DNA from: an uncultured Spirochaetota bacterium
GTDB lineage: Bacteria > Spirochaetota > UBA4802 > UBA5550
Direction of reading: 5' to 3'
DNA length: 64,000 bases
NCBI GenBank assembly: GCA_942493035.1
Contig: OW818666.1
Coordinates: 3,936,813-4,000,812, forward strand
In this document: positions 4,040 to 63,985 of the stretch, piece after piece
Numbering within the stretch: position 1 is the first letter of the stretch
Layout: every line of letters begins with the position of its first letter
The notes under the pieces: model-generated
Told to the model about the DNA's origin: nothing
The model's input: only the letters and a program-made list of their open reading frames with translations
Databases searched by the model: none
Made by a program: the position numbers and the translations under genes

Positions 4040-4232
4040 TAGTATTTATTCCTTAATTTTTCTAAAGTGCGGTCCCAAAAACCTCGTTTAAGAAACCGCA
4101 GGGAGCCATGCGGGGCTTATAAAGGGGCTGCTGCCCCTTTGACCCTGTAAAGGTTGAGTTTATAGAATTGCCCTAAAGTAATAAAAGCGATATATCCCCG
4201 CCGCCGAAGGCGGCGGGGATATATAATTTTTT
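4040..4232 (+). repeat. Hairpin-repeat family B copy, opposite orientation, with ~125-nt GC-rich structured insert
   Basis: Reverse-complemented module AGTATTTATTCCTTAATTTTTCTAAAG (4042-4067), GC-rich segment 4068-4180 with nested stems (GGGGCTGCTGCCCC), then hairpin CCCCGCCGCC-GAAG-GGCGGCGGGG (4196-4218) and an A/T run. Confidence 0.5.
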
Positions 4233-4434
4233 TCACTAAAAATTATATTTATGAATAATTACTGAATTATTTTTATTTTTTGCTATTTTTTCCTTTTACT
4301 TTACAAATAGTTTCTTTTAACGATAAATGGCTTTATAGTAGCTTGTATGATATTTTAAATCAGTAATAATTCATATACTCTTTACTGCGGTAGATTAAAA
4401 GTTACGCTTTAGATGCAAATGGAGTTTAAAATAA

Positions 4435-6087
4435 ATGAAATTCAGTGAATTTAATCTTGATGAGAAAATATTAAAAGGTATTGAAGATGCAGGTTTTGTT
4501 AACTGTACGGAAGTGCAGGCGGAGTCTTTAAAGTATACACTTGACGGGAAAGATATCCTTGTTCAATCCCAGACAGGGACCGGGAAAACTGCCGCATTTA
4601 TGATTCCGCTTTATCACCTCCTTTTAACTAATGAAAAGATGAAAAATAAAAAAGTTCTTATTCTGGCTCCAACAAGAGAACTTGTAATACAGATAGAGAA
4701 AGAGGGGAAACTTCTTGGTGCCCATCTTGATATTAAAATTCAGAGCTTCTACGGCGGTGTCGGGTATAATCAGCAGGAAAATGCCATGAAGGAGGGAGTC
4801 GATATTTACGTAGGAACTCCCGGAAGACTAATGGATTTTGCCAGCAGCGGAAAGATCAAATTCGGAGAGTTTGGTATTCTTGTTATAGATGAAGCTGACA
4901 GAATGTTTGATATGGGATTTTTCCCGGATATAAAAAGAATGATGAAACGCATGGTTTCACCATCTGACAGAATCTCTATGCTTTTCAGTGCTACTTTAAG
5001 TTCCAAGGTAAAGAATCTTGCATGGGAATATATGAATGACCCTGTTGAAGTTACTATTTCCGGCGGACAGGTTACGGTTGAAAAAATTAAGCAGGTTCTT
5101 TATCATGTGGGAACCAATGAAAAGATAAGTCTTCTTCTTGGAATTCTTAAGACACAGAATCCTCAAAACGCGCTTGTATTCACAAATACCAAACAGGACG
5201 CAGTAAAAGTCGCCGCAAGACTTGCAGGTAACGGATACGAATGCAGCTATATTATTGGTGACCTTCCACAGAGTAAGCGGTCTAAAATTATTGAAAATAT
5301 TAAATCGGGTAAACTGAAATATCTAGTTGCAACAGATGTTGCTGCAAGAGGACTTCATATTAACGATCTCGATATTGTAATAAACTACGATATTCCCGAA
5401 GATTTTGAAAATTATGTTCACAGAATCGGGCGGACTGCAAGAGCCGGTAAAACCGGTATGGCCGTAACTTTTGCATGTGAGAAATTTGTATATGGACTTG
5501 AGGCTATAGAGTCATATATAAAAATGAAGATTCCCGTAGAGTGGGCCGGGGACGAGATGTTTGCTGAAGATATGAGTAAAGATGAATTTATCAGAAATTA
5601 TATGAGAGAATCAAAGCAGACAAGAATTGTTTCTGAACATGATGATAAAAAGACAGACAAATTCAGCAAAGATAGAAAAGGGAAAGATAGACCTGCTGCT
5701 GGAGCAAGACCTGAGAAGAAAGATTTCCGGAAAGGTCCTGATAAGAGAGAGGATAAAGATTTCAAAACCAAAAAGAATATTACTGAGACAAAACCTAAAG
5801 CTCCATCCGATAAGAAGGTTTATGATAAAAACAGTAATGATAAAAATAACCGTAAAAAAGATACTGTTACCGAAAAAGTAAATGATAGAGCATCTAAAAA
5901 TCTTACTCCTGATAAGAGAATGGATTATTATAAAGAGAAATACGGAGAGGATTTTACTGTTAAAAGAGAGATTACTGCAGATCCTTCGAAAAAAAGTAAA
6001 AAACCGCCGGTTACAGCTGCAGCAAAGACTCCAGAAAAAAGCAGTTCACTTATTAGCAGGATAAAATCTATTTTCAGAAAGAAATAA
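4435..6087 (+). CDS. DEAD-box ATP-dependent RNA helicase with lysine-rich basic C-terminal tail
   Basis: 550 aa; Q-motif/Walker A (SQTGTGKT), DEAD motif (VIDEADRM), SAT, HRIGRTAR; GGAG SD upstream of ATG. Confidence 0.9.
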   Translation: MKFSEFNLDEKILKGIEDAGFVNCTEVQAESLKYTLDGKDILVQSQTGTGKTAAFMIPLYHLLLTNEKMKNKKVLILAPTRELVIQIEKEGKLLGAHLDIKIQSFYGGVGYNQQENAMKEGVDIYVGTPGRLMDFASSGKIKFGEFGILVIDEADRMFDMGFFPDIKRMMKRMVSPSDRISMLFSATLSSKVKNLAWEYMNDPVEVTISGGQVTVEKIKQVLYHVGTNEKISLLLGILKTQNPQNALVFTNTKQDAVKVAARLAGNGYECSYIIGDLPQSKRSKIIENIKSGKLKYLVATDVAARGLHINDLDIVINYDIPEDFENYVHRIGRTARAGKTGMAVTFACEKFVYGLEAIESYIKMKIPVEWAGDEMFAEDMSKDEFIRNYMRESKQTRIVSEHDDKKTDKFSKDRKGKDRPAAGARPEKKDFRKGPDKREDKDFKTKKNITETKPKAPSDKKVYDKNSNDKNNRKKDTVTEKVNDRASKNLTPDKRMDYYKEKYGEDFTVKREITADPSKKSKKPPVTAAAKTPEKSSSLISRIKSIFRKK

Positions 6088-6183
6088 TCGTAACTGATTA
6101 AAACCTGGTGTTATTTTATCTCCGCAGCACCATGGAGAGCAAATTCACCATCAGTTTAAGCGAAGATACTTATTCATTATAAT

Positions 6184-6212
6184 AGAAAAGGGGCCCCAGG
6201 CCCCTTTTCTAT
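6184..6212. terminator. Rho-independent terminator, bidirectional
   Basis: AAAAGGGGCCCCAGGCCCCTTTTCT between convergent helicase and TPR genes. Confidence 0.65.
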
Positions 6213-6259
6213 TTTGTAAATTTATCAGATTTTATTCCATTTTATAATCCCGGTAATGT

Positions 6260-7069
6260 TTAAATTGCAACACTCCCTCTGGCTTCAATAAGATAATCTA
6301 TGGCGGAATCGGTATTGCCGGAAAATAGATGACATAAGCTGAGCGAAATAAGGTTATCTCTGGTTTTTGATGGAGTTTCTTCAAGTTTCTGAATTTTTTC
6401 TTCAATCGATCCATATTTGTCAGTGAGTATTGCAACAGGTATAGTTTTTACATAATCATTAAAGTTTTTAAATTTTTCTGAGCTGTTTTTGATCTGCTTG
6501 ATTTCATTTGCAGATTCTGCAGTTTTTCCTGAACTGAAAAGCAATTCCGATTTTATTCTCTGAATTGCATCAGAATTAGATTTAAGAGAGGATAATTTAT
6601 TTATAAACTTAAGAGAATCATCGATTCTACCCTGATTATGATAGAGAACTGCAAGAGAAGTAAGAGCTGTAGTGTTTACCGGATCTGTCATAAGGACATT
6701 AATGAAATTTGATTCAGCAGCTTTAAAATTATTTAATCTGCTGTAACATAGACCTATGAGTAAAAAATTCATGTGGAATTTGCTGTTTAGAAGTTTGGAT
6801 TTTTCCAGAACTAAAATTGCGTTTTTAAAATCTGCTTTTTTATAATACAGGCATCCTATATTGTAAAATGTAATGTAATCCTCTTTCAATGAGTTTGCTT
6901 TACAAAAAGATTTAATCGCCTGATCGAATCTTTTTAATTCGGTTAATTTTGCTGCTAATTCAATATATGCATCACGATCAGCTGGATTATGTCTTATATA
7001 ATCAACTATTTTTATCAGACTTTCATTATTGTATAACTCTGTCTGGTTATTATTTATTGTATTCAGCAT
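6260..7069 (-). CDS. Tetratricopeptide-repeat (TPR) protein
   Basis: 269 aa with several TPR-like units (YNIGCLYYKKADFKNAILVLEKS...). Confidence 0.55.
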   Translation of the reverse strand: MLNTINNNQTELYNNESLIKIVDYIRHNPADRDAYIELAAKLTELKRFDQAIKSFCKANSLKEDYITFYNIGCLYYKKADFKNAILVLEKSKLLNSKFHMNFLLIGLCYSRLNNFKAAESNFINVLMTDPVNTTALTSLAVLYHNQGRIDDSLKFINKLSSLKSNSDAIQRIKSELLFSSGKTAESANEIKQIKNSSEKFKNFNDYVKTIPVAILTDKYGSIEEKIQKLEETPSKTRDNLISLSLCHLFSGNTDSAIDYLIEARGSVAI

Positions 7070-7083
7070 TTTTCCCCGCTAAA

Positions 7084-8133: not shown

Positions 8134-8364
8134 ATGTTTTATATTATACTCTAAAAGGTATATCGGTTTTTTAAAGTATTATTTGTATCTTTTTAATTTT
8201 TTAGTCAATTTTATCGAAAAAATATTTGATAAAGATCAGGTATTTAGTGATAAACTGGCTGTTATCCGAGCACGCCGTTGATCAGATAACAGCTGTTTTA
8301 AGCAGTTACAGGATAATATATTTTTATTAAATATTTTAATAAAAATTAACATAAAAAACAAAAA

Positions 8365-8440
8365 TTATATATCCCCGTCGCCTTCGGCGACGGGGATAAT
8401 AGAGCCTTTTTTACAATAGAAAAATTAAGGAATAAATACT
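8365..8440 (+). repeat. Hairpin-repeat family B copy
   Basis: ATATATCCCCGTCGCC-TTCG-GCGACGGGGATAATAGAG, T-run, TAGAAAAATTAAGGAATAAATAC; stem carries compensatory G>T / C>A changes. Confidence 0.55.
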
Positions 8441-8667
8441 GTATTAAAACACAAATTATATGAAATTTTTTTTTGACAATGATCGTGAATTCAGTACTAT
8501 TTATTAAAGAAAAAAGCCTTTACAATTTATTAACGCAAAAAATATTATTCATTTTTTAATATAGAAATGTAAGAGTTATACTTGGGGAAAGTATACGGTA
8601 TCATTTTTCGGGTTTTTATTAAAAAGCCTTATAAATAGTTGCTAATATGTTTAAAGGAGAAAGATCG

Positions 8668-12481: not shown

Positions 12482-12493
12482 ACGGTGGTGATT

Positions 12494-13675
12494 ATGGGAG
12501 TTTCTTTAAAAATTCAGGAATCAATTGAAAAATCTTCATGGATAAGGAAGATGTTTGAAGAGGGTGCAAAACTGAAGGCAGAAGTCGGTGCAGATAATGT
12601 ATATGATTTCAGTCTGGGTAATCCCGATCTTGAACCCCCTGTGGAATTTTTTCAGGCTCTTAAAAAGATGTCTGATTCAACTGCTGCAGGTATGCATGGC
12701 TATATGCCTAACTCAGGATTTGCCGATGTGAGAAATTCTATTTCGCAAAAAGTAGAGAAGGACCATAAAATAAAACTTGATGGTAATTCTCTGGTGATGA
12801 CATGCGGAGCTGCCGGAGGGATGAATATAATCCTGAAAACTATCCTCGACCCGGGTGATGAGATAATTGCTATTAAACCGTACTTTGCTGAATATGGTTT
12901 TTATATTTCAAATCATCAGGGTACGCTTGTACTGGTAGATTCGAATGATGATTTTTCAATAAATATTGATGCAATTGAAAAAGCAATAACGCCTAAAACA
13001 AAGGGTATTATTATTAATAATCCGAATAATCCTACCGGAAAAGTCTACGGCGAAAAAGAGATTGAATCGCTTTGCGAAATGCTTAGACGAAAAAGCTCAG
13101 GAGACAAGAGTATATTTCTTATTTCAGATGAACCTTATAGAGAGATTGTATATGATGACATAGTTGTTTCACCGGTTTTATCAAAATACAAAAACACACT
13201 TGTTGTAAATTCATATTCAAAATCGCTTTCGCTCCCTGGAGAGAGGATCGGTTATGTTGCGGTGAATCCGGAAGCAGATAATTATGCTCTCCTTATGGCC
13301 GGGTTGAATCTGAGCAACAGAATTCTTGGATTTGTAAATGCTCCAGCTTTAATGCAGAGAATTGTTGCACAATTAAATGATGCGGCTGTAAATGTAAGTA
13401 TTTATAAAAAAAGACGCGATATACTTATGGCCGGTTTGAAAGAAGCAGGTTATGAGTTTTCAGTTCCAGATGGCGCTTTTTATCTGTTCTGTAAATCTCC
13501 GGGTGGAGATGATGTAAAGTTTGTAAGACATCTTCAGAAATTTAATATTCTGGCAGTTCCAGGTGTGGGATTCGGCGGTCCCGGTTATTTTCGTCTTGCC
13601 TATTGTACTTCTGAAAAAGTTATTGAGAGAGCAATCCCTAAGTTCAAAGAAGCTCTAGCTTCATTTGATAAGTAA
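12494..13675 (+). CDS. PLP-dependent aminotransferase, class I/II (aspartate/alanine aminotransferase-like)
   Basis: Fold-type I features, PLP-lysine context NSYSKSLSLPGERIGY; track start 12485 is GTG, ATG at 12494 preferred. Confidence 0.8.
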   Translation: MGVSLKIQESIEKSSWIRKMFEEGAKLKAEVGADNVYDFSLGNPDLEPPVEFFQALKKMSDSTAAGMHGYMPNSGFADVRNSISQKVEKDHKIKLDGNSLVMTCGAAGGMNIILKTILDPGDEIIAIKPYFAEYGFYISNHQGTLVLVDSNDDFSINIDAIEKAITPKTKGIIINNPNNPTGKVYGEKEIESLCEMLRRKSSGDKSIFLISDEPYREIVYDDIVVSPVLSKYKNTLVVNSYSKSLSLPGERIGYVAVNPEADNYALLMAGLNLSNRILGFVNAPALMQRIVAQLNDAAVNVSIYKKRRDILMAGLKEAGYEFSVPDGAFYLFCKSPGGDDVKFVRHLQKFNILAVPGVGFGGPGYFRLAYCTSEKVIERAIPKFKEALASFDK

Positions 13676-19314: not shown

Positions 19315-19792
19315 TTTAAAAATACTCGGAATTGATCCCGGCTATGATATAGTCGGGTGGTCAATTCTTAATAATGGATTTAAAGTAGAGAATTACGGTG
19401 TAATAAAAACGTCCCCCGCAGATGAATTCGACGAAAGACTCCTGTCTATACACAATGGCCTTAATAATATTATTGAAGAATTCAATCCTGATTGTGCCGC
19501 CGTAGAAAAAATTTTTTTTCAGAAAAATGTAAAAACCGCAATACCTGTAGCTAAAGCTGTAGGAGTTATACTTCTTACCTTAAAACTCAAGGGGATAAGC
19601 TATACGGAGTATTCCCCTACGGAGATAAAGCATTCTGTAACCGGTTATGGAAAAGCTACAAAGGACCAGATATATTTTATGATGAAAAAACTTCTTAAGC
19701 TGGATAGTATTGAAGGACCGGATGATGCTGCCGATGCTCTTGCAATTGCGATTTGTCATCAATTAAGCGGGAAAAGTTTATCTTTAAAATAA
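19304..19792 (+). CDS. ruvC: Crossover junction endodeoxyribonuclease RuvC
   Basis: 162 aa; KILGIDPGY catalytic Asp region; classic yebC-ruvC pairing; start appears to be TTG overlapping the yebC stop. Confidence 0.9.
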   Translation: MASNLKILGIDPGYDIVGWSILNNGFKVENYGVIKTSPADEFDERLLSIHNGLNNIIEEFNPDCAAVEKIFFQKNVKTAIPVAKAVGVILLTLKLKGISYTEYSPTEIKHSVTGYGKATKDQIYFMMKKLLKLDSIEGPDDAADALAIAICHQLSGKSLSLK

Positions 19793-19817
19793 ATTGTATC
19801 ATCAGTACAACGTGTTT

Positions 19818-19842
19818 CACCGCCGCCAAAGGCGGCGGGGTG
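19818..19842 (+). repeat. Hairpin-repeat family B, short copy
   Basis: CACCGCCGCC-AAAG-GCGGCGGGGTG between convergent ruvC and the beta-CASP RNase gene. Confidence 0.4.
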
Positions 19843-19904
19843 AGTTACTCATAAGCCGGTGATATCTTATCTTTGATGAGCCACCGGCGCGGAGGAGAGC
19901 AATT

Positions 19905-24577: not shown

Positions 24578-25423
24578 ATGATTATTAACCACAATATGTC
24601 CGCTATTAATGCAAACAGAGCCCTAAAATTTCAGAACTGGAACGTAAGCAAGAATATGGAAGCTCTCTCTTCCGGTTTGAGAATTAACAAAGCTGGCGAT
24701 GATGCATCAGGTCTTGCAGTATCAGAAAAAATGAGAACTCAGATTAACGGTTTAAGACAGGCTGAAAGAAATACTGAAGATGGTATGTCTTTTATCCAGA
24801 CAACTGAAGGATATCTTGATGAAGTATCAAGCATTATCCAGAGAGTCAGGGTTCTTGCTGTACAATCTTCAAACGGAATCTATTCTGTAGAAGACAGACA
24901 GCTTATCCAGGTTGAAGTTTCTCAGCTGGTTGATGAAGTAGATAGAATTGCATCACAGGCGGAGTTTAACAAAATGAATCTTCTTCAGGGAGATTTTGCA
25001 AGAGTAAGTGTTACAGCATCTATGTGGATACACATGGGAGCAAACATGCATCAGAGAGAAAGAATATTCATTCAGACAATGACTGCTAAAGCTCTTGGTC
25101 TGAAAAATATGACAGGTAACCCTATCACTCTTTCAACTGCTGGTGAAGCGAACAGAAACATCGGGGTTATGGACAATGCTCTTCATGTACTTTCAAAGCA
25201 GAGAGCGGATTTAGGAGCATACTACAACAGGATGGAACATGCTGCTAAAGGCTTAATGACAGCGTATGAAAACATTCAATCATCTGAAAGCCGTATTAGA
25301 GACGCAGATATGGCAGAGACTATGGTTGATTTTACTAAGAATCAGATTCTTGTGCAGAGTGGTACTGCGATGCTTGCTCAGGCGAATTCAAAGTCTCAGG
25401 GAATTCTCCAGTTACTTAGATAA
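24578..25423 (+). CDS. flaB: Flagellar filament core protein FlaB (spirochete flagellin)
   Basis: 281 aa; N-terminus [18 protein letters not shown], conserved flagellin N- and C-terminal domains. Confidence 0.95.
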
Positions 25424-25660: not shown

Positions 25661-25780
25661 GTCTGTATTCCCTATAGTAAGAGTACAAACCTGGTATCAA
25701 ATGCCTGATAAGGATGTCAGGCAGTTTCGAGTCCTGTAGGAGGGACTTTAAACATCTAATTAAACAAAGGAGTGTTTAAT

Positions 25781-26632
25781 ATGATTATCAATCATAACAT
25801 GAGTGCAATCAATGCTAATAAAGCGTTGAAGTTCAAGCAGTGGGATACAAACAAGTCAATGGAATCTCTTTCCTCTGGTCTCCGGATCAATAAGGCTGGA
25901 GATGATGCTTCAGGACTTGCTGTGTCTGAAAAGATGAGAACACAGATTCAGGGTTTAAGACAGGCTGAGAGAAATACTGAGGATGGTATGTCTTTCGTTC
26001 AGACTACTGAAGGGTATCTGAACCAGACTACTGAAATACTTCAAAGGATTAGAGTTCTTGCCGTACAATCTTCAAACGGTATCTATTCTGATCAGGATAG
26101 ACAGCTTATCCAGGTTGAAGTTTCAGCTCTTGTTGACGAAGTTGACAGGATAGCATCACAGGCTGAGTTTAATAAATTTAAACTTCTGCTGGGGGATTTC
26201 TCAAAAACCGGTGCGAAAGCCAGTATGTGGTTTCATATGGGTGCAAATATGAATCAGCGGGAGAGGGTTTATATTGGTACTATGACTGCGAACGGTTTAG
26301 GTCTTAAAGAAAAAAATGGCGCCTTTATCGCTGATCTGGCATCTGCTGACAGCGCAAACAGAACTATTGGTGTGGTCGACGATGCTCTTCACAAAATTTC
26401 TAAGCAGCGGGCGGACCTTGGCGCATATTTTAACAGACTCGACTATGCTACAAGAGGTCTAATGACTGCCTATGAAAATATACAAGCATCCGAAAGCCGG
26501 ATAAGAGACGCTGATATGGCTGAAACAATGGTTGATTTAACAAAAGATCAAGTTCTAGTGCAGAGTGGTACTGCGATGTTAGCTCAGGCAAATATGAAAA
26601 CAAGAACCATTCTTCAGCTTCTTGGCGGTTGA
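25781..26632 (+). CDS. flaB: Flagellar filament core protein FlaB, second paralog
   Basis: About 283 aa from ATG 25781 (AAAGGAG SD; track start is GTG); N-terminus [18 protein letters not shown]. Confidence 0.95.
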
Positions 26633-27460: not shown

Positions 27461-27560
27461 TATATAGTAACTACTCATAAATTGCAGGTAATTATGATTT
27501 TCCCCGCGACTACGGCGCGGGGAAACAGATTTCACCACCGGTTTATGAACAGTTACTATA
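27461..27560. repeat. ~100-bp palindromic element with central GC hairpin (family B-like)
   Basis: Arms ATATATAGTAACTACTCATAAA / TTTATGAACAGTTACTATATAT flank the hairpin CCCCGCG-ACTAC-GGCGCGGGG. Confidence 0.4.
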
Positions 27561-29947: not shown

Positions 29948-32575
29948 TTAATTCACCATCTTCTCAGCAAGCTTGACAGCCTCTTCAACAGCCTTTTCCA
30001 GATTTGCTGCATCTTTTCCACCGGCCTGGGCCATATCCTTTCTTCCTCCGCCGCCACCGCCGACAATTCCGACTGTTTCCTTGACGAGCTTGCCGCAGTC
30101 AATTCCTTTCTCCACAGCCTTGTTAGTTGCTGCATAGAGAAGCATTGCTTTGCCGCCGATATCTGAACCAAAACATACTACTGAGTTCTGGACTCTCTCT
30201 CTTATTGAGTCTGAAAGTCCGCGCAGTGTATCAACATCCATATCCTTAAATGTTCTGGAGATGATTTTTATTCCATTGATATCTTTTCCCGACGCGATTA
30301 TCCCCTCGAGATCGGATGTGAGGGATGACTTTTTCATCTTGTCGATCTCTTTCTCAAGAGCTTTGCTTTTTGTTACAATTTCATCTACTTTTTTAACAAG
30401 TCCCGACTCAGATATATTTACTGTTTCTGAAAGTATTGATACTATTTTATTCTGTTCGTTGAATCTGTCGAGAAGTCCCTTCAGGGTTACAGCTTCAATT
30501 CTTCTGATTCCGGCACCTGGTGAACTCTCTTTCAGTATTTTGAAGAGTCCGATTTTTCCTGTGTTTGTAACGTGGGTTCCGCCGCAGAGTTCCATGCTGA
30601 AACCGGGGACTTCAAGTACACGGACTGTATCCTCATACTTCTCATCAAATACTGCCATGGCGCCTTTTTTAACAGCATCGTTTATGTTCATTATCTCTGT
30701 TGTTACATCGACATTTTCCCAGATGACTTCGTTGACCATATTTTCAATCTGAATTATTTCTTCATTGGTCAGAGAGTTGAAGTGTGAAAAATCGAAGCGG
30801 AGTTTTTCCGGATCGACAATTGAACCGGCCTGTTTAACGTGATTTCCAAGAGTTTTGCGCAGAGCTGCCTGGAGCAGGTGTGTCGCCGTGTGATTTGCAC
30901 GGATCAGGTTTCTGTTTACTATATCCAGTTTTGCTTCAGCTTTATTACCTGTTTTAAATGTTCCTGATGAAACAGTTCCAACGTGGATTATTGTTTTATT
31001 GGTTTTTTTGGTATCTTCTACTGTAAATACTGAGTCACCGCAGACTATCTGACCCTTGTCTCCAACCTGTCCGCCTGATTCGCCGTAGAATGGTGTACGG
31101 TCCAGGACGATAAGCCCACGATCACCGGCAGAGAGAGTATCAGTCTTTGAAGTCTCCTTGTATAATGCCAGTATTTTAACCTCTGCAGAGTCTGAATCGT
31201 ATCCGAGGAATTCAGTGTTGCCGCATGTTGAAATGATCTCGTCATAAACTGTATCGAGCCCCATGTCGCTCCCTTTCCAGCTCTGCTTGCCACGCTCACG
31301 CTGTTTTGACATCTCGGTGTTGAAGCCTTCTGTATCAACAGAGAGCCCCTGCTCGATGGCCATCTCTGTTGTCATTTCAAGAGGGAATCCGAATGTATCG
31401 TAAAGAACAAATGCGTCATTTCCGGTGATGGTTTTCTCTCCGCTTTTCTTCACGGATTTGACAATCTCATCGAGTCGGTCCATTCCGTTTTCGATTGTTT
31501 CCAGGAATCTTCTCTCTTCGGATTCGATTACACTTTTTACATTTGAAGCGCTCCCTATTATTTCGGGATAGAACTCACCCATGATGTCTACAATAGGATC
31601 AACGACTTTATATACAAATGGTTCTTTAAATCCAAGGAATCTGCTGTATCGAAGCGCACGGCGGAGAACTCTTCTCAGGACATATCCTCTTCCGTCGTTT
31701 GAAGGATATATTCCGTCAGACATTGCGAATGTTAAGGTTCTTGCGTGCTCAACTATTACTTTTATAGGGAGAGTGTTGTTCCCCTCATATTTCATTCCAG
31801 ATTCGCGGCTTACAAATTCAATGAGAGATTTAAGTTCGTCTGTTTCGAAAACAGAGTCTACTCCCTGGACAAGGGTGGTGAGTCTTTCGAGTCCCATACC
31901 TGTATCGATTCCTGTACGGGGGAGGGGATTCAGTGCTCCGGTTTCGTCCTGGTTAAACTGATTGAAAACAAGGTTCCAGTATTCAAGGTAGCGGTCGCAG
32001 TCGCAACCCGGTTTGCAGTCTGCAGAACCGCATCCGAACTCCTCCCCTCTGTCGTAGTAGAGTTCTGAACATGGACCGCATGCTCCGGTAAGTCCGGCAG
32101 GTCCCCAGAAGTTATCTTTTTTTCCAAGGCGAACAATTCTTTCGGCAGGGATTCCTATTCTTTTATTCCATATTTCGTGAGCTTCGTTGTCATCTTCGTA
32201 TATGGTGGCCCAGAGTTTTTCCTTAGGGAATTTAATTATGTTTGTAGAATAGTCCCAGGCAAATTCGATCGCTTCGGTTTTAAAATAATCACCGAATGAA
32301 AAGTTTCCAAGCATTTCAAAAAGTGTAAGGTGGCGCTTAGTCCGTCCAACCTGTTCAAGGTCGCTTGTACGGAGGCATTTCTGTATGGAAGCGGCGCGTG
32401 TATATTCAAGATCTACTGTACCGGCAAACATCGGTTTGAACTGTACCATTCCGGCAGTTGTGAACAGTAATGTCGGGTCATCTTTAGGCATGAGTGAACT
32501 TGACGGTACAATCCTGTGACCATTCTCTTTGAAGAAATCTATGAAAGATCTGCGTAAATCTTTAGCTTTATGCAT
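29948..32575 (-). CDS. alaS: Alanine--tRNA ligase
   Basis: About 875 aa from ATG 32575 (MHKAKDLRRSFIDFF); class II core, editing-domain motif HTATHLLQAALR, C-terminal DHHA1-like region. Confidence 0.95.
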   Translation of the reverse strand: MHKAKDLRRSFIDFFKENGHRIVPSSSLMPKDDPTLLFTTAGMVQFKPMFAGTVDLEYTRAASIQKCLRTSDLEQVGRTKRHLTLFEMLGNFSFGDYFKTEAIEFAWDYSTNIIKFPKEKLWATIYEDDNEAHEIWNKRIGIPAERIVRLGKKDNFWGPAGLTGACGPCSELYYDRGEEFGCGSADCKPGCDCDRYLEYWNLVFNQFNQDETGALNPLPRTGIDTGMGLERLTTLVQGVDSVFETDELKSLIEFVSRESGMKYEGNNTLPIKVIVEHARTLTFAMSDGIYPSNDGRGYVLRRVLRRALRYSRFLGFKEPFVYKVVDPIVDIMGEFYPEIIGSASNVKSVIESEERRFLETIENGMDRLDEIVKSVKKSGEKTITGNDAFVLYDTFGFPLEMTTEMAIEQGLSVDTEGFNTEMSKQRERGKQSWKGSDMGLDTVYDEIISTCGNTEFLGYDSDSAEVKILALYKETSKTDTLSAGDRGLIVLDRTPFYGESGGQVGDKGQIVCGDSVFTVEDTKKTNKTIIHVGTVSSGTFKTGNKAEAKLDIVNRNLIRANHTATHLLQAALRKTLGNHVKQAGSIVDPEKLRFDFSHFNSLTNEEIIQIENMVNEVIWENVDVTTEIMNINDAVKKGAMAVFDEKYEDTVRVLEVPGFSMELCGGTHVTNTGKIGLFKILKESSPGAGIRRIEAVTLKGLLDRFNEQNKIVSILSETVNISESGLVKKVDEIVTKSKALEKEIDKMKKSSLTSDLEGIIASGKDINGIKIISRTFKDMDVDTLRGLSDSIRERVQNSVVCFGSDIGGKAMLLYAATNKAVEKGIDCGKLVKETVGIVGGGGGGRKDMAQAGGKDAANLEKAVEEAVKLAEKMVN

Positions 32576-36026: not shown

Positions 36027-36112
36027 AATTTTAACCTTAATATTAAGATTCTGATACTACAAAGGAGATAACATATTAAGGGGGTAATTGGAATAGCCTT
36101 CGTATCTATTGA

Positions 36113-36166
36113 TTTGTGGTCGTATTAATTATTTTTCTGTGGCAGTGTGCGGCATTTGTTTTTTCT
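36113..36166. promoter_or_regulatory. Shared upstream motif, copy 1 (TTTGTGGTCGTATTAATTATTTTTCTGTGG...)
   Basis: 24-nt exact match to 42092-42148; lies upstream of the crotonase operon start. Confidence 0.4.
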
Positions 36167-40659: not shown

Positions 40660-40689
40660 TTTTATTCCTCTTTTTACTATAAATTTTAA

Positions 40690-40726
40690 ATATTCCCGCC
40701 GCCTTTGGCGGCGGGAATAATAGAGC
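40690..40726 (+). repeat. Hairpin-repeat family B copy
   Basis: ATATTCCCGCCGCC-TTTG-GCGGCGGGAATAATAGAG between the thiolase stop and the acyl-CoA dehydrogenase start. Confidence 0.5.
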
Positions 40727-40738
40727 ATTTATTTTTTA

Positions 40739-41941: not shown

Positions 41942-42091
41942 AAATAGCCTCCATTATCTAATTATTAAAAACGGATTGCCTTTTGTATTCGAAGCGGTAC
42001 AGCTTCGACAATGAGTCTTTAAATAATTTAAAATCATATAAAGAGAGATAAGGCATAAAAAGTATTAATGCAATAGCCGTCATAGAGGGAG

Positions 42092-42148
42092 TTTTGTGGT
42101 CGTATTAATTATTTTTTTGTGGTGAGAGGGGTGCAGCGGAATTTTTTT
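42092..42148. promoter_or_regulatory. Shared upstream motif, copy 2 (TTTGTGGTCGTATTAATTATTTTTTTGTGG...)
   Basis: 24-nt exact match to 36113-36166; upstream of the thiolase / acyl-CoA dehydrogenase operon. Confidence 0.4.
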
Positions 42149-45995: not shown

Positions 45996-46048
45996 TTTAA
46001 AATCAGTAATTACACCTAAATATAATTTTTAGAGTAAAAGGCAAAAAA

Positions 46049-46120
46049 ATATATCCCCGCCGCCATTGGCGGCGGGGATAATAGAGTTTTGTTACTTTAG
46101 AAAAGTTAAGGAATAAATAC
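46049..46120 (+). repeat. Hairpin-repeat family B copy
   Basis: ATATATCCCCGCCGCC-ATTG-GCGGCGGGGATAATAGAG, then TTTAGAAAAGTTAAGGAATAAATAC. Confidence 0.55.
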
Positions 46121-46211
46121 TGATTTAAACTGTATTTATTGATTATTTTTTGCCAAATTTGTAATGAATATATTGAATCTAAAATAGAAAATACTACAAA
46201 CCGGGGGATCG

Positions 46212-53451: not shown

Positions 53452-53910
53452 ATGAGGGATTTTTTTATCGGGGAGAGGATATTATTAATTGAGCGAATGA
53501 TCCTTTCCGTTGGGGTGAATGATTATTCGCCCGTACGAGGTTGAGAGAAATTTTATAAAGGGGATATTTTTAGGAGTGGGATTTTTTTATCGGGGGAGAG
53601 GGGATTTTTAATTGAGCGAATGATCCTTTCCGTTGGGGCGAATGATTATTCGCCAGTACGAGGTTGAGAGAAATTTTATAAAGGGGATATTTTTAGGAGT
53701 GGGATTTTTTTATCGGGGAGAGGGGATTTTTTAATTGAGCGAATGATCCTATCCGTTGGGGCGAATGATTATTCGCCCGTACGAGGTTGAGAGAAATTTT
53801 ATAAAGGGGATATTTTTAGGAGTGGGATTTTTTTATTGGGGAGAGGATATTTTTAATTGAGCGAATGATCCTATCCGTTGGGGCGAATGATTATTCGCCC
53901 GTACGTGATT
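53452..53910 (+). repeat. Tandem array of four ~122-bp units, each with REP hairpin GGGCGAATGATTATTCGCCC
   Basis: Near-identical units beginning AGTGGGATTTTTTTATCGGGGAGAGG...; each holds GAGCGAATGATCC plus the palindromic GGGCGAAT-GATT-ATTCGCCC followed by GTACG. Confidence 0.85.
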
Positions 53911-54013
53911 GGGAGAATAATATTTATAAAATATTTTTTATTAAGGGAATTTTTTAAAAATTTCTCTGCTGCTATCGTATTCATATGTAAGAAATATTAT
54001 TAAGGAATTTAAA

Positions 54014-54565
54014 ATGTCATATAATCCGGTTTTTCATCATAGGCGATCTATTCGTTTAAAGAGATTTGATTATTCTTCTTCGGGTGCATATTTTGTTACT
54101 TTATGTGTAAAAAATAGAACAAAAATTTTTGGCTATATTGTCGGTGGTAAAATGATTTTAAATGCTGCCGGTATAGCAGCTCAGTTATGCTGGCAGGAGA
54201 TACCTTTACATTATCCCTTTGTTTCTCTGGATGTATTTGTTATTATGCCCGATCATATTCATGGGATAATTTTGATTAAGGAATCGGATTTGAGGTGGGG
54301 AAAGGATACTGATGTCGTGGAGAATGATTATTCGCCTGTACGTGAAAATGATAATTTGTTTCATAATAAGCGGCCGCGCGGTACTTCAAAAACAATCGGA
54401 TCGGTTGTTCGCGGATATAAGATAGGTGTAACAAAATGGTTCCGTAAGCATACACTTGTCGAGTCTGTCTGGCAGCGAGATTATTATGAGAATATTATAA
54501 GAAATTATGATGATTTAAATCGAATTCGTAGGTATATTATAAATAATCCGCAGAAGTGGAGATAG
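54014..54565 (+). CDS. REP-associated tyrosine transposase (RAYT; IS200/IS605-like HUH Y1 transposase)
   Basis: 183 aa; N-terminal GAYFVTLCVKNR, HUH motif PDHIHGII, C-terminal WQRDYYENIIR...YIINNPQKW, all resembling E. coli RayT/YafM; flanked on both sides by REP copies. Confidence 0.8.
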   Translation: MSYNPVFHHRRSIRLKRFDYSSSGAYFVTLCVKNRTKIFGYIVGGKMILNAAGIAAQLCWQEIPLHYPFVSLDVFVIMPDHIHGIILIKESDLRWGKDTDVVENDYSPVRENDNLFHNKRPRGTSKTIGSVVRGYKIGVTKWFRKHTLVESVWQRDYYENIIRNYDDLNRIRRYIINNPQKWR

Positions 54566-56174: not shown

Positions 56175-56296
56175 TCATTCACCTGTTATTTAACCTGAAT
56201 TAAACTTTGTAATGAAATATCTCTGTTCAATATAATAGTTTAATTTTTATCCGGTAATTATTCCTAAATATAATTTTTATTGTAAAAAACAAAAAT

Positions 56297-56369
56297 TTTA
56301 TATCCCCGCAGCTTCCGGGGGCGTAGATAATAGAGTTTTTTTATTTCAGAAAAGTTAAGGAATAAATAC
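56297..56369 (+). repeat. Hairpin-repeat family B copy, degenerate stem
   Basis: TTATATCCCCGCAGCTTCCGGGGGCGTAGATAATAGAG, T-run, TTTCAGAAAAGTTAAGGAATAAATAC. Confidence 0.5.
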
Positions 56370-56406
56370 CGTTTTTTATCACTGAAAATTCTTGGGAACA
56401 TGAATT

Positions 56407-58263
56407 TTAAATACTATAGATTATAGTTTCATTCAGGCAATATTCAATAAATTCATAAACTTCATTTTTGCTGATCTTAGGATATTTTTTCAGCATATCT
56501 TTTAGCGTATTTTTCTCTGTAAGACCGTAGAGGAAATCGCTTAGTTCTTTTTCAACGATCAGAGGTTTAACTTCTCCGCCGCAATTGTAAACTATTACTG
56601 CTGTTTTTTCAGGACGGAATCTGGATAAAAACTCCTCTAATGTATATTCACCAACACTCATGAGCTCATCGAAATTGTATTTAAGTGAAATAAACTCAGT
56701 TGCCGGTGAGAGTTTAAACAGTGTATTATCATTGAAGGATACTTTTAATTCTCCAGTGTATGGGCCTTTAAGCAGAGAGTTGTTTAAAGCTCCATGTATT
56801 GTAATAATATCCTTCATGACAGGGAAGAGATTCTTTTTATCATTCCTTGTGAATATCTCCTGCACAAATGATAATTGTGAAGATGTTATATCATCTATTG
56901 AATTTCGGGATAATAGTTTTGCAGCGGATTGATGAAGTGCATAATTATCCAGCAGATCAGCCGGTTCCATATCAAGTGTTTCGATAATCATAAACATCCA
57001 TCCTGCAGCTCCCCCCTGATTATAGAAAATATTGCAGGAATTTTTTAATGACTCTGCGGAAGCCATATCCTTTTCAGAAAATCCGGGTGATGAGATGAGT
57101 GTATATGGCGCGTCATCGGTAAATTTTAAATTAAATGATTCTGCATTGTCATACAGAACTGTTCCCGGGAGCACTGCAAGGGGAAATATATCCAGATGGT
57201 TCGGCTGAAGGGTAAGTGCGTAATTTAAACTTTGTTTAAAACCGTCAAGGGTATCTCCGGGGAGTCCATATATCAGGTCCAGGCCGAATATTACACCGGC
57301 TTCATTGAGCAGGGCAATTTTATCGGCATATTTATCAGGATCAATATTTCTGTTCACATTGGAAAGAACTTCAGGGATTGCACTTTGCAGACCTATCTGA
57401 AGGCTGCAGTTTATCATGGCGAACAGTTGAGCCATCTCTGAATCTAAAAATTCAGTGCGGACTTCAAATGTGAAGTGTATAAGCGGAGCAGTTTTAATTA
57501 TCATGCGGAGTATTTTTTTTGCACGTTTAACATCACGGTTGAATGTCGGATCGAGGACAAATACCTGATTTACATTTTCCGATTCAAATAGTTCAAGCTC
57601 CTTCTGGATGCGCTCAAGAGAGTACTGCCGTACACCTGCAACTCCTCGCGACTCAAAACAGAAACTGCACTTAAAAGGACATCCTCTGGAGAGTTCCCAT
57701 AGAACTCCTGAATATTTTTTTACGTCAATAACTCCGGATAAAAAAGGGGAGGGGAGTTCATCAAGATTCATTATCGGGCACTGATTTTTATCTGAATCGG
57801 CAGTCTGGTTTTTTACAATTACCGCATCGATATTATTGCAGGGTTCTTTTTTTTGTATTTTTTTAATTACTTCAGTGAGGGCAAGCTCACCTTCACCCTT
57901 GATTACAAAGTCGAATGGTCCGCTTTCCAGAAGTCTTTCAGGAAGAGCTGTAGCCTCGGCTCCCCCTGCAAAGAGAACTTTATCTGGAAAATTGTTATGA
58001 ATGATGTGACATATTTCCAGAGTCAGGTGTCTGTTCCATAGGTAAGTGGAAAAACCGATCATGTCCGGGGAATTTCCGCATATCTGATCCGCAATCAGCT
58101 GAGCATCAGTGTCGAGATAAAAGTCAAGATATGAGACCTCTGTTTTATTATTAATTTCCAGAACTGAATCAAGCTGTGATTTCAGCAGGGCAGCAGCGAG
58201 GGGCATCGCCTGTGGTGAATTTTTTATGTGAATTGATACTATTATCAGTTTCAGTTTTTTCAA
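56407..58263 (-). CDS. B12-binding domain radical SAM protein with C-terminal extension (DUF4080-like)
   Basis: 618 aa; N-terminal cobalamin-binding-like domain, radical SAM cluster CPFKCSFC, about 200-aa C-terminal domain; apparent TTG start with AGGGA SD. Confidence 0.8.
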   Translation of the reverse strand: MKKLKLIIVSIHIKNSPQAMPLAAALLKSQLDSVLEINNKTEVSYLDFYLDTDAQLIADQICGNSPDMIGFSTYLWNRHLTLEICHIIHNNFPDKVLFAGGAEATALPERLLESGPFDFVIKGEGELALTEVIKKIQKKEPCNNIDAVIVKNQTADSDKNQCPIMNLDELPSPFLSGVIDVKKYSGVLWELSRGCPFKCSFCFESRGVAGVRQYSLERIQKELELFESENVNQVFVLDPTFNRDVKRAKKILRMIIKTAPLIHFTFEVRTEFLDSEMAQLFAMINCSLQIGLQSAIPEVLSNVNRNIDPDKYADKIALLNEAGVIFGLDLIYGLPGDTLDGFKQSLNYALTLQPNHLDIFPLAVLPGTVLYDNAESFNLKFTDDAPYTLISSPGFSEKDMASAESLKNSCNIFYNQGGAAGWMFMIIETLDMEPADLLDNYALHQSAAKLLSRNSIDDITSSQLSFVQEIFTRNDKKNLFPVMKDIITIHGALNNSLLKGPYTGELKVSFNDNTLFKLSPATEFISLKYNFDELMSVGEYTLEEFLSRFRPEKTAVIVYNCGGEVKPLIVEKELSDFLYGLTEKNTLKDMLKKYPKISKNEVYEFIEYCLNETIIYSI

Positions 58264-58437: not shown

Positions 58438-59196
58438 TTATTGAGTCAGTTTTCTTATTATATCGTCGGCACACTTTTTTCCGGACAGAAGCATCCCTCC
58501 GAAGATGGGACCCATACGCGGTGAACCGAAGTATCCGCATGCAGCCATTCCTGTTACGTATAAGCCGGGATAAATTTCTCTGGTATTTTCTACAGTCATC
58601 AATTCACCCATATCTGAATTCATTGGAGCTTCACCTTTGGGCGGATCAATAATCCCGCGTTTTGCAAGCATTGAAACTATTGCAGAGGGGTGGCCCGTTG
58701 AATCTACAACAATATCCGATGAAATCATAAGCGGATCAACATGAAGACCCGTTGCTCTTACCGGTGACCAGTTTATAACAACTCCGCTCATTGCGCCATT
58801 TTTGACTGATACATCTTCCACTTCAACAGTATTAAAAATGGTCAGACCTGCATCGACAGCATGTGCAGTTAACTTTGCTGCCATTTCCACTGAATCGAGA
58901 GAATAATAATCGCCGGGATGTTCGGTAAGGTGCAGAGAGAATTCTCTTGCTATCGGTATACTCTCCTTCTGCAGTATAACCCTGTTCATCATCATACCGC
59001 CGCCCCATACTCCGCCACCTATAGAAAGCTTGCTTTCGAAGAGTGCAGTTTTAATACCGGCGTGTGAAAGGTAGTATCCAAGGACAACTCCCGACGGACC
59101 TCCTCCGACTATTACAACCTGATTTCTCAGGTGTGCCAACAGCTTTGCTGAAAATGTTTCGATTACCAGTTGAGAAATTATTGATTCATCAAGCAT
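58438..59196 (-). CDS. thi4: Thi4-family thiazole synthase
   Basis: 252 aa; VVIVGGGPSGVVLGYYL dinucleotide fold and SIGGGVWGGGMMMN; GGAGG SD; TPP riboswitch upstream. Confidence 0.85.
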   Translation of the reverse strand: MLDESIISQLVIETFSAKLLAHLRNQVVIVGGGPSGVVLGYYLSHAGIKTALFESKLSIGGGVWGGGMMMNRVILQKESIPIAREFSLHLTEHPGDYYSLDSVEMAAKLTAHAVDAGLTIFNTVEVEDVSVKNGAMSGVVINWSPVRATGLHVDPLMISSDIVVDSTGHPSAIVSMLAKRGIIDPPKGEAPMNSDMGELMTVENTREIYPGLYVTGMAACGYFGSPRMGPIFGGMLLSGKKCADDIIRKLTQ

Positions 59197-59224: not shown

Positions 59225-59362
59225 AAAAAAGCCGCGTACGGAGGAACGCGGCATATACATTGATAATCTATAGTTATTGTACTGCCGTTTCCCTCCGCCG
59301 GTATTAACCGGATCAGGTAAAAAGGGTATAATCTCAGCACGCATTTACTGCGGCACCCCTAA
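59225..59362 (-). promoter_or_regulatory. TPP (THI-box) riboswitch with terminator expression platform
   Basis: Minus strand reads UAGGGGUGCCGCAGUAAAUGCGUGCUGAGAUUAUACCCUUUUACCUGAUCCGGUUAAUACCGGCGGAGGGAAACGG, then hairpin GCCGCGUUCCUCCGUACGCGGC plus U-run, then GGAGGAA SD and the thi4 AUG. Confidence 0.9.
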
Positions 59363-59534
59363 CGGTAAAAATTTTATCAAAGAACTGATTTATTAAAAAA
59401 TCTACCGGGCATTGATGTCAATTAATTATTATATTTTTAATCTAATAAAAATATAATAATTTAAAGCGCTGTGAATTTCTATTATAAACAAGCCAGTGTC
59501 GAAAAACCATGATTCTAAAAACTAGCTGATATTA

Positions 59535-59867: not shown

Positions 59868-59981
59868 AATCTTTAACCTCTTAATTTTAATTGTTAGACC
59901 TGATAAAAAGAAGAAAGGTTCCATTATGATATTTTTTCAGTAATTATTCCTGAATATAATTTTAGTGAAAAAAACTAAAAT

Positions 59982-60021
59982 TATATATCCCCGCCACCGA
60001 AGACGGCGGGGATAATAGAGC
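59982..60021 (+). repeat. Hairpin-repeat family B copy
   Basis: TATATATCCCCGCCACC-GAAG-ACGGCGGGGATAATAGAG. Confidence 0.5.
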
Positions 60022-60138
60022 CTTTATATAGATGCTTGCAGTTTTTTGAAGAGAACTAAAATTATCTTCATAGTTAAAAAATGGTTGCAGAGGCGTCATA
60101 AATTAAGTAAATATATTTATACAGTTAAGGAGATTTTC

Positions 60139-61206: not shown

Positions 61207-61212
61207 AAAAAT

Positions 61213-61248
61213 GGATCATCCGGTAGTGATGCTGATACCGGATGATCC
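61213..61248. terminator. Hairpin terminator with 13-bp perfect stem, bidirectional
   Basis: GGATCATCCGGTA-GTGATGCTGA-TACCGGATGATCC between convergent genes. Confidence 0.6.
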
Positions 61249-61280
61249 GCAATTAACTAATGTGTGTTTTCAAAATATAA

Positions 61281-62858
61281 TCAAGCCACTACCTCTACAC
61301 TCGAATCATCTGAGATAATAACATTCAGTTTGTCCGCAAGTTGTTTAAGTTTTACATAATTAGTTTTTAGTATCTGCGCACTGCCGGCAATGTTCTGTAC
61401 AATTGAACTGGTGTTATCTATTGAAACTACAATTTCATTAATGGCTGTTGATTGTTCTGAACTTGCATTCTTTATGATTTCCGATTTCTCCTGAACACTG
61501 CCGGTTTTATCGAGCATATCATGCTGAATAACGCTTTGCTTTAAAATTGTTTCCATGGTTTCTGTTGCTTTTTTTTCTGCGGCAATAAGAGATGTCCCTA
61601 TACTTTCAATGAATTTGACTATCTCTCCGACTATGATACCGGATGATTCCATATCTTTGCGGTTATTGCTTATCAGATCTTTTATCTTACTCAATTCAAT
61701 TGTGGAGTTATCTGCAAGTTTTCCCACTTCATCGGCAACAACACCGAAACCGCGTCCATGTTCTCCGGCTCTGGCTGCTTCGATAGATGCATTGAGAGCA
61801 AGGAGATTTATTCTTTCAAAAAAATCATCCATAATGTCAGCAATGCTCTGCATATTTATGGAGTTCGCAAGTATCTTGCTGTTTATATCGCTTATAGCCT
61901 GAGATGATTTTTTTCCGCTCAAAGCGATAGAGGTGATAACAGCAAACTCATTCTGCAGATCAACTCCGTATATCTGAAGCTGGTTTATAAGTTCATAAAG
62001 TGAATGTATGCTGCTTCCGAGTTCTGAAACGGATTCGTTCTGATTTGCCGCTGCATTATCTACATTTACTGTATTTGCAGAGATCTCTTCCATTGATGCA
62101 GCAAGTTCTTCAATTGTTGCAGCCTGAGTCTGAGTACTGATAAATATATCTGTTATAACATCCTCTGTTGAATTTATGGATGTTGTAAGCTCATTGTATG
62201 ATGTGCGGATTGTTTCAATCAGGTGAGTTATATATTCATTTTTTTCTGATGTGATTTTCGCTTCATTTTCACTTGCGCTTATTGCAAGACGAAGAAATTT
62301 CATTACAAAGTATGTAATGGTATATGTCAGGATAATTGACACTATCCCCATTATTGTTCCTGCACGTATAAGCTCAATTTTATCAGCAGCTCCGGCAGTT
62401 GCCATTGATGAATCAAAACGGCTCTGATTCCATATAAAAAGGCCTATTATAAGAAATACGACAATAAACTGAATAATTCTTGGTGCAAACATTGCAGCTA
62501 AGACAAGCATGGGATAAACAAAATATATAATCGTTACCATTGTTATTTCAGGGGTCCGGGCTTCTGCTCCTCCAATCGAAATGAGACATTGAAAAAGTAC
62601 AAAAAATGAGGCAGCGCTGCTCAGTTTTCCTCTGTATATCAGGAAGATGGTAATTACAGCAGATGTAATGGAACTTAAGCAGGAGACTGCCAGCTTCATG
62701 AAATCTATTCTGCCGATGAAAATAAAGAATGTTGTAATCATTAGTAATAAAAATATGAAAGCAATGACGAAAAGAAACTGCGCGCTTGAACGTTCTACTA
62801 TTCCTTTATTATTGTAATTATGAAAAAGTCTTTTTTTTAAACCCATGAAAAGTACCAT
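61281..62858 (-). CDS. Methyl-accepting chemotaxis protein with N-terminal multi-TM domain
   Basis: 525 aa; several TM helices, then MCP signalling domain ([31 protein letters not shown]). Confidence 0.85.
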
Positions 62859-62942
62859 TTTTTCCTCTCTTGCGGATAAGGCTTTTTTATATATTTTTTT
62901 GGAAATTTTTTTTAAATTTAATTTTTAGTATAAAAAAAAGAA

Positions 62943-63015
62943 TTATATATCCCCGCCGCCGAAGGGGGCGGGGATAATAGAACTTTTTTTACTTCAGAAA
63001 AGTTAAAGAATAAAT
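62943..63015 (+). repeat. Hairpin-repeat family B copy
   Basis: TATATATCCCCGCCGCC-GAAG-GGGGCGGGGATAATAGAAC, T-run, TTCAGAAAAGTTAAAGAATAAATGC. Confidence 0.55.
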
Positions 63016-63124
63016 GCATATTTTATTGATCCTGAATTCATATAATTCTGTTTTATTAAAAAATTGAGCCGGACTTTAATCCGGCTCGATGAAAGTTCAG
63101 GAAGTATGAATAGAGAATTGATCT

Positions 63125-63880
63125 TTAGAAAATTGTATATCCTCCATCTATCTGGTACGCTGCTCCGTGAATGAAAGAAGAATCATCAGAAGCAAGGAAG
63201 AGCGCTAGTTTTGCTACCTCTTCAGATTTTCCCGGTCTACCGGCCGGTGAAGCTTTGATTTTCATGTTCAGAGGGTGCTGAGGCATTTCAAGAACTCTCT
63301 GTATCATCGCGGTTTCAATTGGTCCGGGACAGATAGCATTTGTTCTGATCCCCTGTGGTCCATGCATAAAAGCGAGCTGTCTTGTAAAACCAAGAAGGCC
63401 ATGTTTAGCTGCTGTATACACAAGTCCGCCGCGGCCTGCAGCAAAAGATGCCATAGAAGCTATATTGATAATGTTTCCTTTTCCGTTTTTAACCATGTGA
63501 GGTATAGCTTTTTTAGATGCGAGGAAGGGGCCTTTAAGATTTACAGCCATTACCTGATCCCACTCTTCAATTGTTGTGTCGAATATTGATGAGAGAGTTC
63601 CGCCAATGCCGGCGTTGTTTACAAGTATGTCGATCTTTCCGAAATCGGAGACAGTTTTGTTCATCAGATTTTCAACATCAGATTCTTTTGATGCGTCAGC
63701 CTGAACAAAGATCGCGGTTCCCCCCTCTTTCTTTATAAGGTCAACGGTTGCTTCTCCTGTATCTTTAAGGAAATCTGATACAACAACTTTTGCTCCCTCT
63801 TTTGCGTACTCTCTGGCGATCTCGCGTCCTATTCCGCTTCCGGCGCCGGTTACTATTGCAACTTTATCTTTTAATTTCAT
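63125..63880 (-). CDS. SDR-family oxidoreductase (3-oxoacyl-ACP reductase-like)
   Basis: 251 aa; TGAGSGIG Rossmann motif, NNAG, catalytic YTAAK. Confidence 0.9.
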   Translation of the reverse strand: MKLKDKVAIVTGAGSGIGREIAREYAKEGAKVVVSDFLKDTGEATVDLIKKEGGTAIFVQADASKESDVENLMNKTVSDFGKIDILVNNAGIGGTLSSIFDTTIEEWDQVMAVNLKGPFLASKKAIPHMVKNGKGNIINIASMASFAAGRGGLVYTAAKHGLLGFTRQLAFMHGPQGIRTNAICPGPIETAMIQRVLEMPQHPLNMKIKASPAGRPGKSEEVAKLALFLASDDSSFIHGAAYQIDGGYTIF

Positions 63881-63944
63881 AATTCAAAACCTCATTTAAT
63901 ATTAAAATATTATTGAATTTCAACAAACTGCTTTATATAACCAT

Positions 63945-63985
63945 CCGGCCCCCAACCCCCGGAGTCGGGCTTTGGGATAATAATA
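63945..63985 (+). repeat. Degenerate GC hairpin, possibly family B-related
   Basis: CCCAACCCCCGGAGTCGGGCTTTGGGATAATAATAA. Confidence 0.3.

Follow-up and report, generated by a model that had tools for sequence, protein, structure and literature searches.

What is the short GC-rich hairpin that recurs between the genes of an uncultured spirochaete, and how did it come to be there? The question is raised by a 64,000-nucleotide (nt) stretch of an uncultured Spirochaetota bacterium (assembly GCA_942493035.1, contig OW818666.1, positions 3,936,813 to 4,000,812 of the forward strand), referred to below in its full length as the window. An earlier note, made from these letters alone, described at least ten copies of an interspersed hairpin family and proposed either a REP/REPIN-type element or a small structured RNA. 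Here, the hairpin is found to be the centre of a ~120-bp imperfect palindrome with terminal inverted repeats, CAGTAATTATTCC… and …GGAATAAATACTG, and the repeat is very probably a family of miniature transposable elements with inverted repeats (MITEs) of about that length, mobilised in trans by a transposase that is presumably of the DDE type.

A dispersed palindrome with inverted ends and flanking duplications

The window has a G+C content of ~37%, and the decamer CCCCGCCGCC, with at most one mismatch allowed, matches 15 times on the two strands where 0.43 matches are expected (0 of 100 shuffles gave 15), which confirms that an interspersed GC-rich hairpin family is present. Matches to the decamer form the hairpins of seven of the sites in Table 1, while the hairpin starting at 56303 is decayed; one further match, within the alanyl-tRNA synthetase gene at 30046, is due to chance. 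A repeat finder clusters the hairpin sites into families D2, D4, D7 and D11, whose flanking sequence is also common. As had been described, ATAATAGAG and a T-run follow 3' of the hairpin at 8373, 40695, 46055, 56303, 59990 and 62951. The conserved 24-nt flanking module is equally real, with AAGGAATAAATAC occurring four times on the + strand (8427, 46108, 56357 and 63005) and once on the - strand (4042-4054), and it corresponds to the right-hand end of the element. Membership in the window was decided by family hidden Markov models (HMMs) built from full copies, which recover seven members and one marginal site (19782-19844) in the 64 kb, a density of about one copy per 9 kb. The count of ten or more copies is reduced accordingly, as the sites at 27502-27522 and 63945-63985 give no family HMM match and have neither flanks nor stem in common with the family. 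The reported orientation of nine copies in ten does not hold either: the copy at 4196 is inverted, and the seven members are oriented 6:1, which is not significant (two-sided binomial p = 0.125).

Aligning the copies with wider flanks reveals a conserved left arm, CAGTAATTATTCCTAAATATAATTTTTAG…AAAAAACAAAAATTATATAT, which the earlier note had missed together with the inverted-repeat ends and a segment nested in the 4196 copy. The parts of the element follow a fixed order: the left end CAGTAATTATTCCTAAATATAATTTTTAG, an A-rich stretch, ATATAT, a central GC stem of 10-13 bp with a 3-nt loop, ATAATAGAG, the T-run and the right end …AGAAAAGTTAAGGAATAAATACTG. The left arm also carries a conserved TATAAT box. 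The terminal inverted repeats measure ~14-25 bp, and over their outer ~14 nt the two arms, CAGTAATTATTCCT and AGGAATAAATACTG, are inverted with respect to each other. This pair is present at both ends of copies in the window and in all 14 loci of two metagenome-assembled genomes (MAGs) named below, and in both sets the element has sharp boundaries. The element contains no open reading frame (ORF), and the 46004 copy folds as a single long imperfect hairpin (-50.6 kcal/mol, z = -10.3).

Copies are found well beyond the window. In a one-genome-per-species scan, which used a two-module pattern, two MAGs are the only genomes to show the pattern: Spirochaetae bacterium HGW-Spirochaetae-5 and Spirochaetes bacterium ADurb.Bin218. 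In metagenomes, a degenerate pattern of the end matches at least 120 contigs, mostly from JGI and ENA assemblies. Among the contigs listed, a pooled set of 1.1 Mb holds 168 non-overlapping HMM matches, 129 of them full length. The window, the two MAGs and 120 of the metagenome contigs together give 94 unique two-ended copies with lengths of 114-125 bp and a mode of 119-121 bp.

The flanks of these copies carry the signature of insertion. A direct repeat of 9 bp, identical at 8 or 9 of its 9 positions, borders 59 of the 94 two-ended copies (63%), against 1.2% in a cross-copy control. Among 15 copies checked by hand, the two 9-mers agree at 110 of 135 bases (the control mean being 3.9/9), with seven perfect 9-bp duplications and four that match at 8/9. 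The duplicated 9-mer is 91% A+T and has an A at position 1 and a T at position 9, giving the consensus A-W7-T. By a simple longest-ORF gene model, none of the 78 classifiable copies lies inside a gene; 42 (54%) are found between divergent genes, 27 between tandem and 9 between convergent ones, so all three intergenic settings claimed for the family are indeed occupied. These proportions roughly track intergenic length in the same loci (42% divergent, 45% tandem, 13% convergent), and in tandem contexts the orientation of copies relative to the genes is random, 14 being the same and 13 opposite. Insertion into AT-rich intergenic DNA, combined with the loss of insertions that damage genes, fits both the intergenic-only placement and the random orientation.

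The presence of copies also differs between genomes. The MAG copies are 75-90% identical to those of the window, and identity between copies of different genomes is as high as 88-90%, while the DNA of an orthologous gene is only 69% identical. In the window, the 56252-56371 copy lies 35 nt past the stop codon of a radical-SAM gene (56407-58263, - strand). The ortholog of this gene at locus L016 (80% protein identity) has a diverged copy 14 nt past its stop, in the orientation opposite to that of the window, and the ortholog at L015 (81% protein identity) has a downstream site without a copy. The L015 site that matches the window's 59990 copy holds a decayed hairpin-like remnant only.

MITEs are defined by terminal inverted repeats, a duplication of fixed length, small size, the lack of an ORF and a high number of copies, and the assignment is made on these grounds. 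In the mechanism that we propose, a DDE-type transposase encoded elsewhere would bind both ends of the element, excise or copy it, and insert it where AT-rich DNA (A-W7-T) has been cut with a stagger of 9 bp, and repair of this cut would leave the 9-bp flanking duplication. Insertions would survive only between genes. The GC hairpin is kept at the level of the family: the stems of subfamilies differ and stay complementary while individual old copies decay.

Compensated stems and the role of the hairpin

The stems vary by subfamily yet remain complementary, as seen in CCCAGCCGCC/GGCGGCTGGG, CTCCCGCCGCC/GGCGGCGGGAG, CCCCGAAGCC/GGTTTCGGGG and the window's own CCCCGTCGCC/GGCGACGGGG, a compensated C>T/G>A pair in the 8373-8395 hairpin that had been correctly identified. 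Compensation is general in the family: in a centre-anchored alignment of 44 copies, changes on both sides occur at 8 of 13 stem positions (41 cells), a value that 0 of 500 shuffles reach, with all slid-partner controls lower. RNAalifold predicts no structure on an 88-copy MAFFT alignment because indels misregister the stem, for which reason the centre-anchored alignment and explicit pair counts were used instead. Palindromic DNA can gain paired changes by template switching (quasi-palindrome mutagenesis) without any selection on RNA. Compensated changes are also expected of the DNA palindrome of a transposon, and they are not by themselves proof of selection on an RNA. The compensated stems show a palindrome maintained in propagating lineages, at the family level, rather than RNA selection.

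What the hairpin does for the element is best addressed with two proposals. Our best guess is that the hairpin, together with its A-run and T-run, would render insertions tolerable by serving as a transcription stop or insulator, a role that is plausible. Alternatively, the hairpin may help the two ends to meet during transposition. Within the final 19 kb of the window, no site is more terminator-like than the hairpin with its T-run on the strand that runs against the element.

A related reading places the benefit with the host, and takes the GC hairpin to be a functional module (for instance a stem that stabilises RNA, or a two-way stop or insulator of transcription) which the transposon would distribute and the host would keep. 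The compensated stems across subfamilies hint in this direction, as do the hairpin-only remnants at 40694 and 19818 and the remnant at the L015 site equivalent to 59990. The random orientation discussed below stands against a stop or insulator as the main constraint, and we consider a host-kept module unlikely. As a further possibility, MITE ends may serve as a chassis for structured-RNA cargo in variants of ~240-300 nt with GC-rich cores, one of which has a core that is nearly invariant over ~100 nt in three loci.

It is far less probable that the copies are small structured RNA genes or cis-regulatory RNA motifs whose hairpin is selected as RNA, which was one of the two original suggestions. 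Such a family would account for the covarying stems, for the very stable fold of the 46004 copy and for the conserved TATAAT box, but no copy in the window matches Rfam 15 at the gathering score, and permissive scans of two copies come nowhere near threshold. The orientation of copies is random relative to neighbouring genes, and the flanking duplications show that the copies arose by insertion. Stems are decayed in about a quarter of all copies, and G.T and A.C mismatches in the stem number 11 against 6, with no strand bias. Finally, template switching can pair changes without RNA selection.

The search for a parent and the weaker alternatives

Several points weigh against the MITE assignment and the proposed stop or insulator role, or temper the numbers on which they draw. 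Firstly, no autonomous element with MITE ends was found in the window, in the 1.1 Mb of related contigs or in viral and plasmid collections. Secondly, an exact empty site, with the same flanks and a single 9-mer, was not recovered among the pooled loci, because the nearest relatives are only ~80% protein-identical and the loci were chosen for carrying the element. The conservation of the ends, at least 90% over the first 14 positions, is inflated for one of them, as the metagenome loci were picked by an exact match to one end, mostly the right. In the same way, the percentage paired is inflated in the 44-copy stem alignment, into which only good stems were taken. Finally, a terminator role is not backed by the orientation of the copies, which is random relative to the genes and thus argues against a stop or insulator as the main constraint on the hairpin, and 54% of copies have divergent genes on their two sides, a setting in which no transcript ends.

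All 49 genes of the window are ordinary chromosomal genes, including those for FlaB-type flagellins, alanyl-tRNA synthetase, GMP synthase, PPDK, TGT, chemotaxis receptors and fatty-acid oxidation, and there is no transposase and no Y1/RAYT gene among them. Solitary or widely spaced ends were followed up across all loci. Those at L054, L064/L108 and L089 are truncated copies, those at L039/L122 and L138 are chance matches in eukaryote-like or phage DNA, and the one at L030 has no transposase nearby. Neither a YREK-motif screen of 992 ORFs nor a screen for ORFs flanked by inverted repeats yielded a suitable parent, and blastn of the consensus against plasmids returned only insignificant Borreliella matches. 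The only transposase met with belongs to an IS481-type insert at L043, which is unrelated and was rejected as a parent. By the ISfinder family tables, ends that start with CA(G) and 9-bp duplications would fit ISAs1 (CAGGG, 8-10 bp) or some IS4 groups best, which makes these the candidate families for the transposase.

The other original suggestion, a REP/REPIN-type element in which short palindromes are spread by a domesticated Y1 (RAYT) transposase, has next to no credibility left. The family is interspersed, intergenic, GC-rich and palindromic with compensated stems, and in these respects it does resemble REPs. Y1/RAYT transposition, as known from IS200/IS605 and RAYT elements, involves neither target-site duplications nor terminal inverted repeats, whereas the present family has 9-bp duplications and inverted repeats of 14-25 bp. 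The unit is ~120 bp long against 20-40 bp for REPs, which travel with a RAYT gene, and the window has no Y1 transposase. The family definition of REPs includes a GTAG or CGTC head beside the stem (PMC3733652), but the stem of the spirochaete element is flanked by ATATAT and ATAATAGAG instead. An IS200/IS605-derived palindrome-associated element, with subterminal hairpins and with neither terminal inverted repeats nor duplication, is ruled out by the presence of both.

Equally hard to credit, and refuted as an account of where the copies come from, is a set of ordinary intrinsic terminators whose likeness would reflect a preference of the genome for one stem sequence: the hairpin and T-run are the region's top terminator-like site, on the strand opposite to element orientation, and three window copies (40695, 56303 and 62951) do lie downstream of - strand genes in the effective orientation, but the conserved arms extend ~45 nt on each side, far past any terminator, more than half of the copies lie between divergent genes, the tandem orientation is balanced, only one strand offers a qualifying hairpin and T-run, target-site duplications are present, and the element occurs at unrelated loci in several genomes. 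The earlier note was right to see one repeat family here rather than a collection of terminators.

Window copies, neighbouring features and known relatives

Table 1. Sites of the repeat family in the window, with the duplications and genes that flank them
Feature	Position	Strand	Details
Full-length copy, reversed, with nested insert	4040-4264	-	right end 4040-4062, hairpin 4196-4218, left end 4242-4264; flanked by AATTATTTT at 4031-4039 and 4265-4273, a perfect (9/9) target-site duplication of 9 bp
Nested GC-rich segment, ~104 nt	4069-4172	none	in right arm of the 4040-4264 copy, outside the canonical element; bounded by 7-bp direct repeat CTAAAGT (4062-4068, 4173-4179)
Copy with decayed left arm	8347-8441	+	HMM positions 27-121, E = 7e-21; hairpin 8373-8395, right end 8419-8441
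Marginal member	19782-19844	+	E = 2e-4; hairpin from 19818, CACCGCCGCC AAA GGCGGCGGGG, arms not recognisable; an old remnant or else an ordinary terminator; the flanking ruvC and beta-CASP RNase genes converge
Hairpin-only remnant, both ends lost	40679-40737	+	E = 4e-11; hairpin 40694-40716 and ATAATAGAG; flanked by two - strand genes, for thiolase and acyl-CoA dehydrogenase
Canonical full-length copy, 119 bp	46004-46122	+	left end 46004-46026, hairpin 46055-46077, right end 46100-46122; target-site duplication ATTTAAAAT/ATTTAAACT (8/9)
Full-length copy, 120 bp, central stem decayed	56252-56371	+	target-site duplication ATTTTTATC/TTTTTTATC (8/9); starts 36 nt downstream of the radical-SAM gene (56407-58263, - strand)
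Copy without right arm, truncated on 3' side	59938-60027	+	left end 59938-59960, hairpin 59989-60011; between divergent SHOCT-domain and Exo_endo_phos genes
Near-full-length copy, degenerate ends	~62900-63019	+	hairpin 62951-62973; right end 62997-63019, 4 mismatches

Two copies have themselves been interrupted. The first ~80 nt of the nested segment at 4069-4172 recur at L015:5258-5334 and L123:4003-4079 with 86% identity, in unrelated loci of other genomes, outside any MITE and with some compensated stem changes. The segment has no Rfam match, and could represent a further small mobile element or else a structured RNA that is so far undescribed. At L043:213-1634, a MITE copy is split in its hairpin loop by the 1.3-kb IS481-type insertion sequence mentioned above, which encodes a 381-aa transposase, has ends TGTATAGAC… and is flanked by the 6-bp duplication GCTTCG. 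The insertion of other elements into MITE copies, at L043 and at 4040-4264, is expected of neutral DNA.

Several variants share parts of the MITE. A mini-version of 56 nt at L100:2799-2854 is barely more than the two terminal inverted repeats. Relatives of ~300 nt, with similar ends and a different core of ~190 nt, are found at L096:8206-8509, L062:6580-6860 and L065:1493-1650; ~100 nt of this core is nearly invariant over the three contigs while the arms vary, and it has no Rfam match. Another GC-rich core lies between MITE-type ends at L045:8927-9172. Upstream of a radical-SAM gene, L016:9832-9869 forms a perfect GC hairpin, ACGTCCCCCCGCC TTC GGCGGGGGGACGT, with ATATAT on both sides; it looks like the core of a MITE that lacks its arms, and would be a remnant or else a related module.

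The window contains further repeats and one known riboswitch. Four tandem copies of a 123-nt unit occupy 53458-53950, between the TGT and DUF1304 genes, and the hairpin core of this unit, GGGGCGAATGATTATTCGCCCGTAC, has dispersed copies in the window at 54310, 54642, 55079 and 25561. The 123-nt repeat is unrelated to the MITE and also occurs between the matching genes of a related genome (L015:12357-12541 and 13208-13394). A repeat of 78 nt at 36065-36142 and 42045-42122 is 73% identical between its two copies and ends in TTTGTGGTCGTATTAATTATTTTT. It lies upstream of a MarR-family gene (36285) and of an unannotated gene (42386), and may be a shared operator or promoter region. Two tandem flagellin genes (24578-25423 and 25772-26632) are ~76% identical in DNA. 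The only Rfam match in the window is a thiamine pyrophosphate (TPP) riboswitch at 59273-59370 on the - strand, which scores 73 bits, above the Rfam gathering score, and lies upstream of a Thi4-family gene (58438-59196).

Among described elements, MITEAba12 of Acinetobacter baumannii, which is 113 bp long with 16-bp terminal repeats and 9-bp duplications and is mobilised by ISAba12 (PMC6382973), is the closest analogue in anatomy. Both elements are AT-rich overall and of similar size (113 vs ~120 bp), with imperfect terminal inverted repeats, no ORF and 9-bp target-site duplications, and the mobilisation in trans of MITEAba12 is what we suppose for the spirochaete MITE. The ends of the two are unrelated (GGCTTTGTTGCACAAA vs CAGTAATTATTCC). 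MITEAba12 lacks a central GC hairpin, has a known parent insertion sequence, and is present in few copies per genome, in contrast to the density of about one per 9 kb in the window. Correia elements (NEMIS) of Neisseria, ERIC and RUP are imperfect palindromes of 100-170 bp with terminal inverted repeats that are abundant between genes. Their transcripts fold into long hairpins and may act as terminators or promoters or as targets of RNase III, and the spirochaete MITE resembles them in its long-hairpin fold and in possible effects on transcripts. Correia and RUP duplicate a TA dinucleotide, unlike the 9 bp duplicated by the spirochaete MITE, and none of these families shares sequence similarity with it. 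A survey of MITEs in prokaryotes reports that Spirochaetes, with Leptospira, Sediminispirochaeta and Treponema as the genera named, are MITE-rich, with an average of 145 per genome, mostly intergenic (PMC11602168). A MITE family in the present spirochaete fits this report.

To judge from a literature text search for the end sequences, which returned only unrelated primers, the family is a new one of a well-known kind. For annotation, the window copies are to be masked as MITE DNA and not called terminators, small RNAs or REPs. The ends together with the HMM provide a ready marker for a lineage of Spirochaetota, uncultured, from digesters and groundwater. The family opens no new class of system and belongs to a common kind of selfish DNA. 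It is nevertheless a clean example of a MITE with a central hairpin that is maintained across subfamilies by paired changes, and a reasonable choice for studying whether it is the transposon or the host that such hairpins serve.

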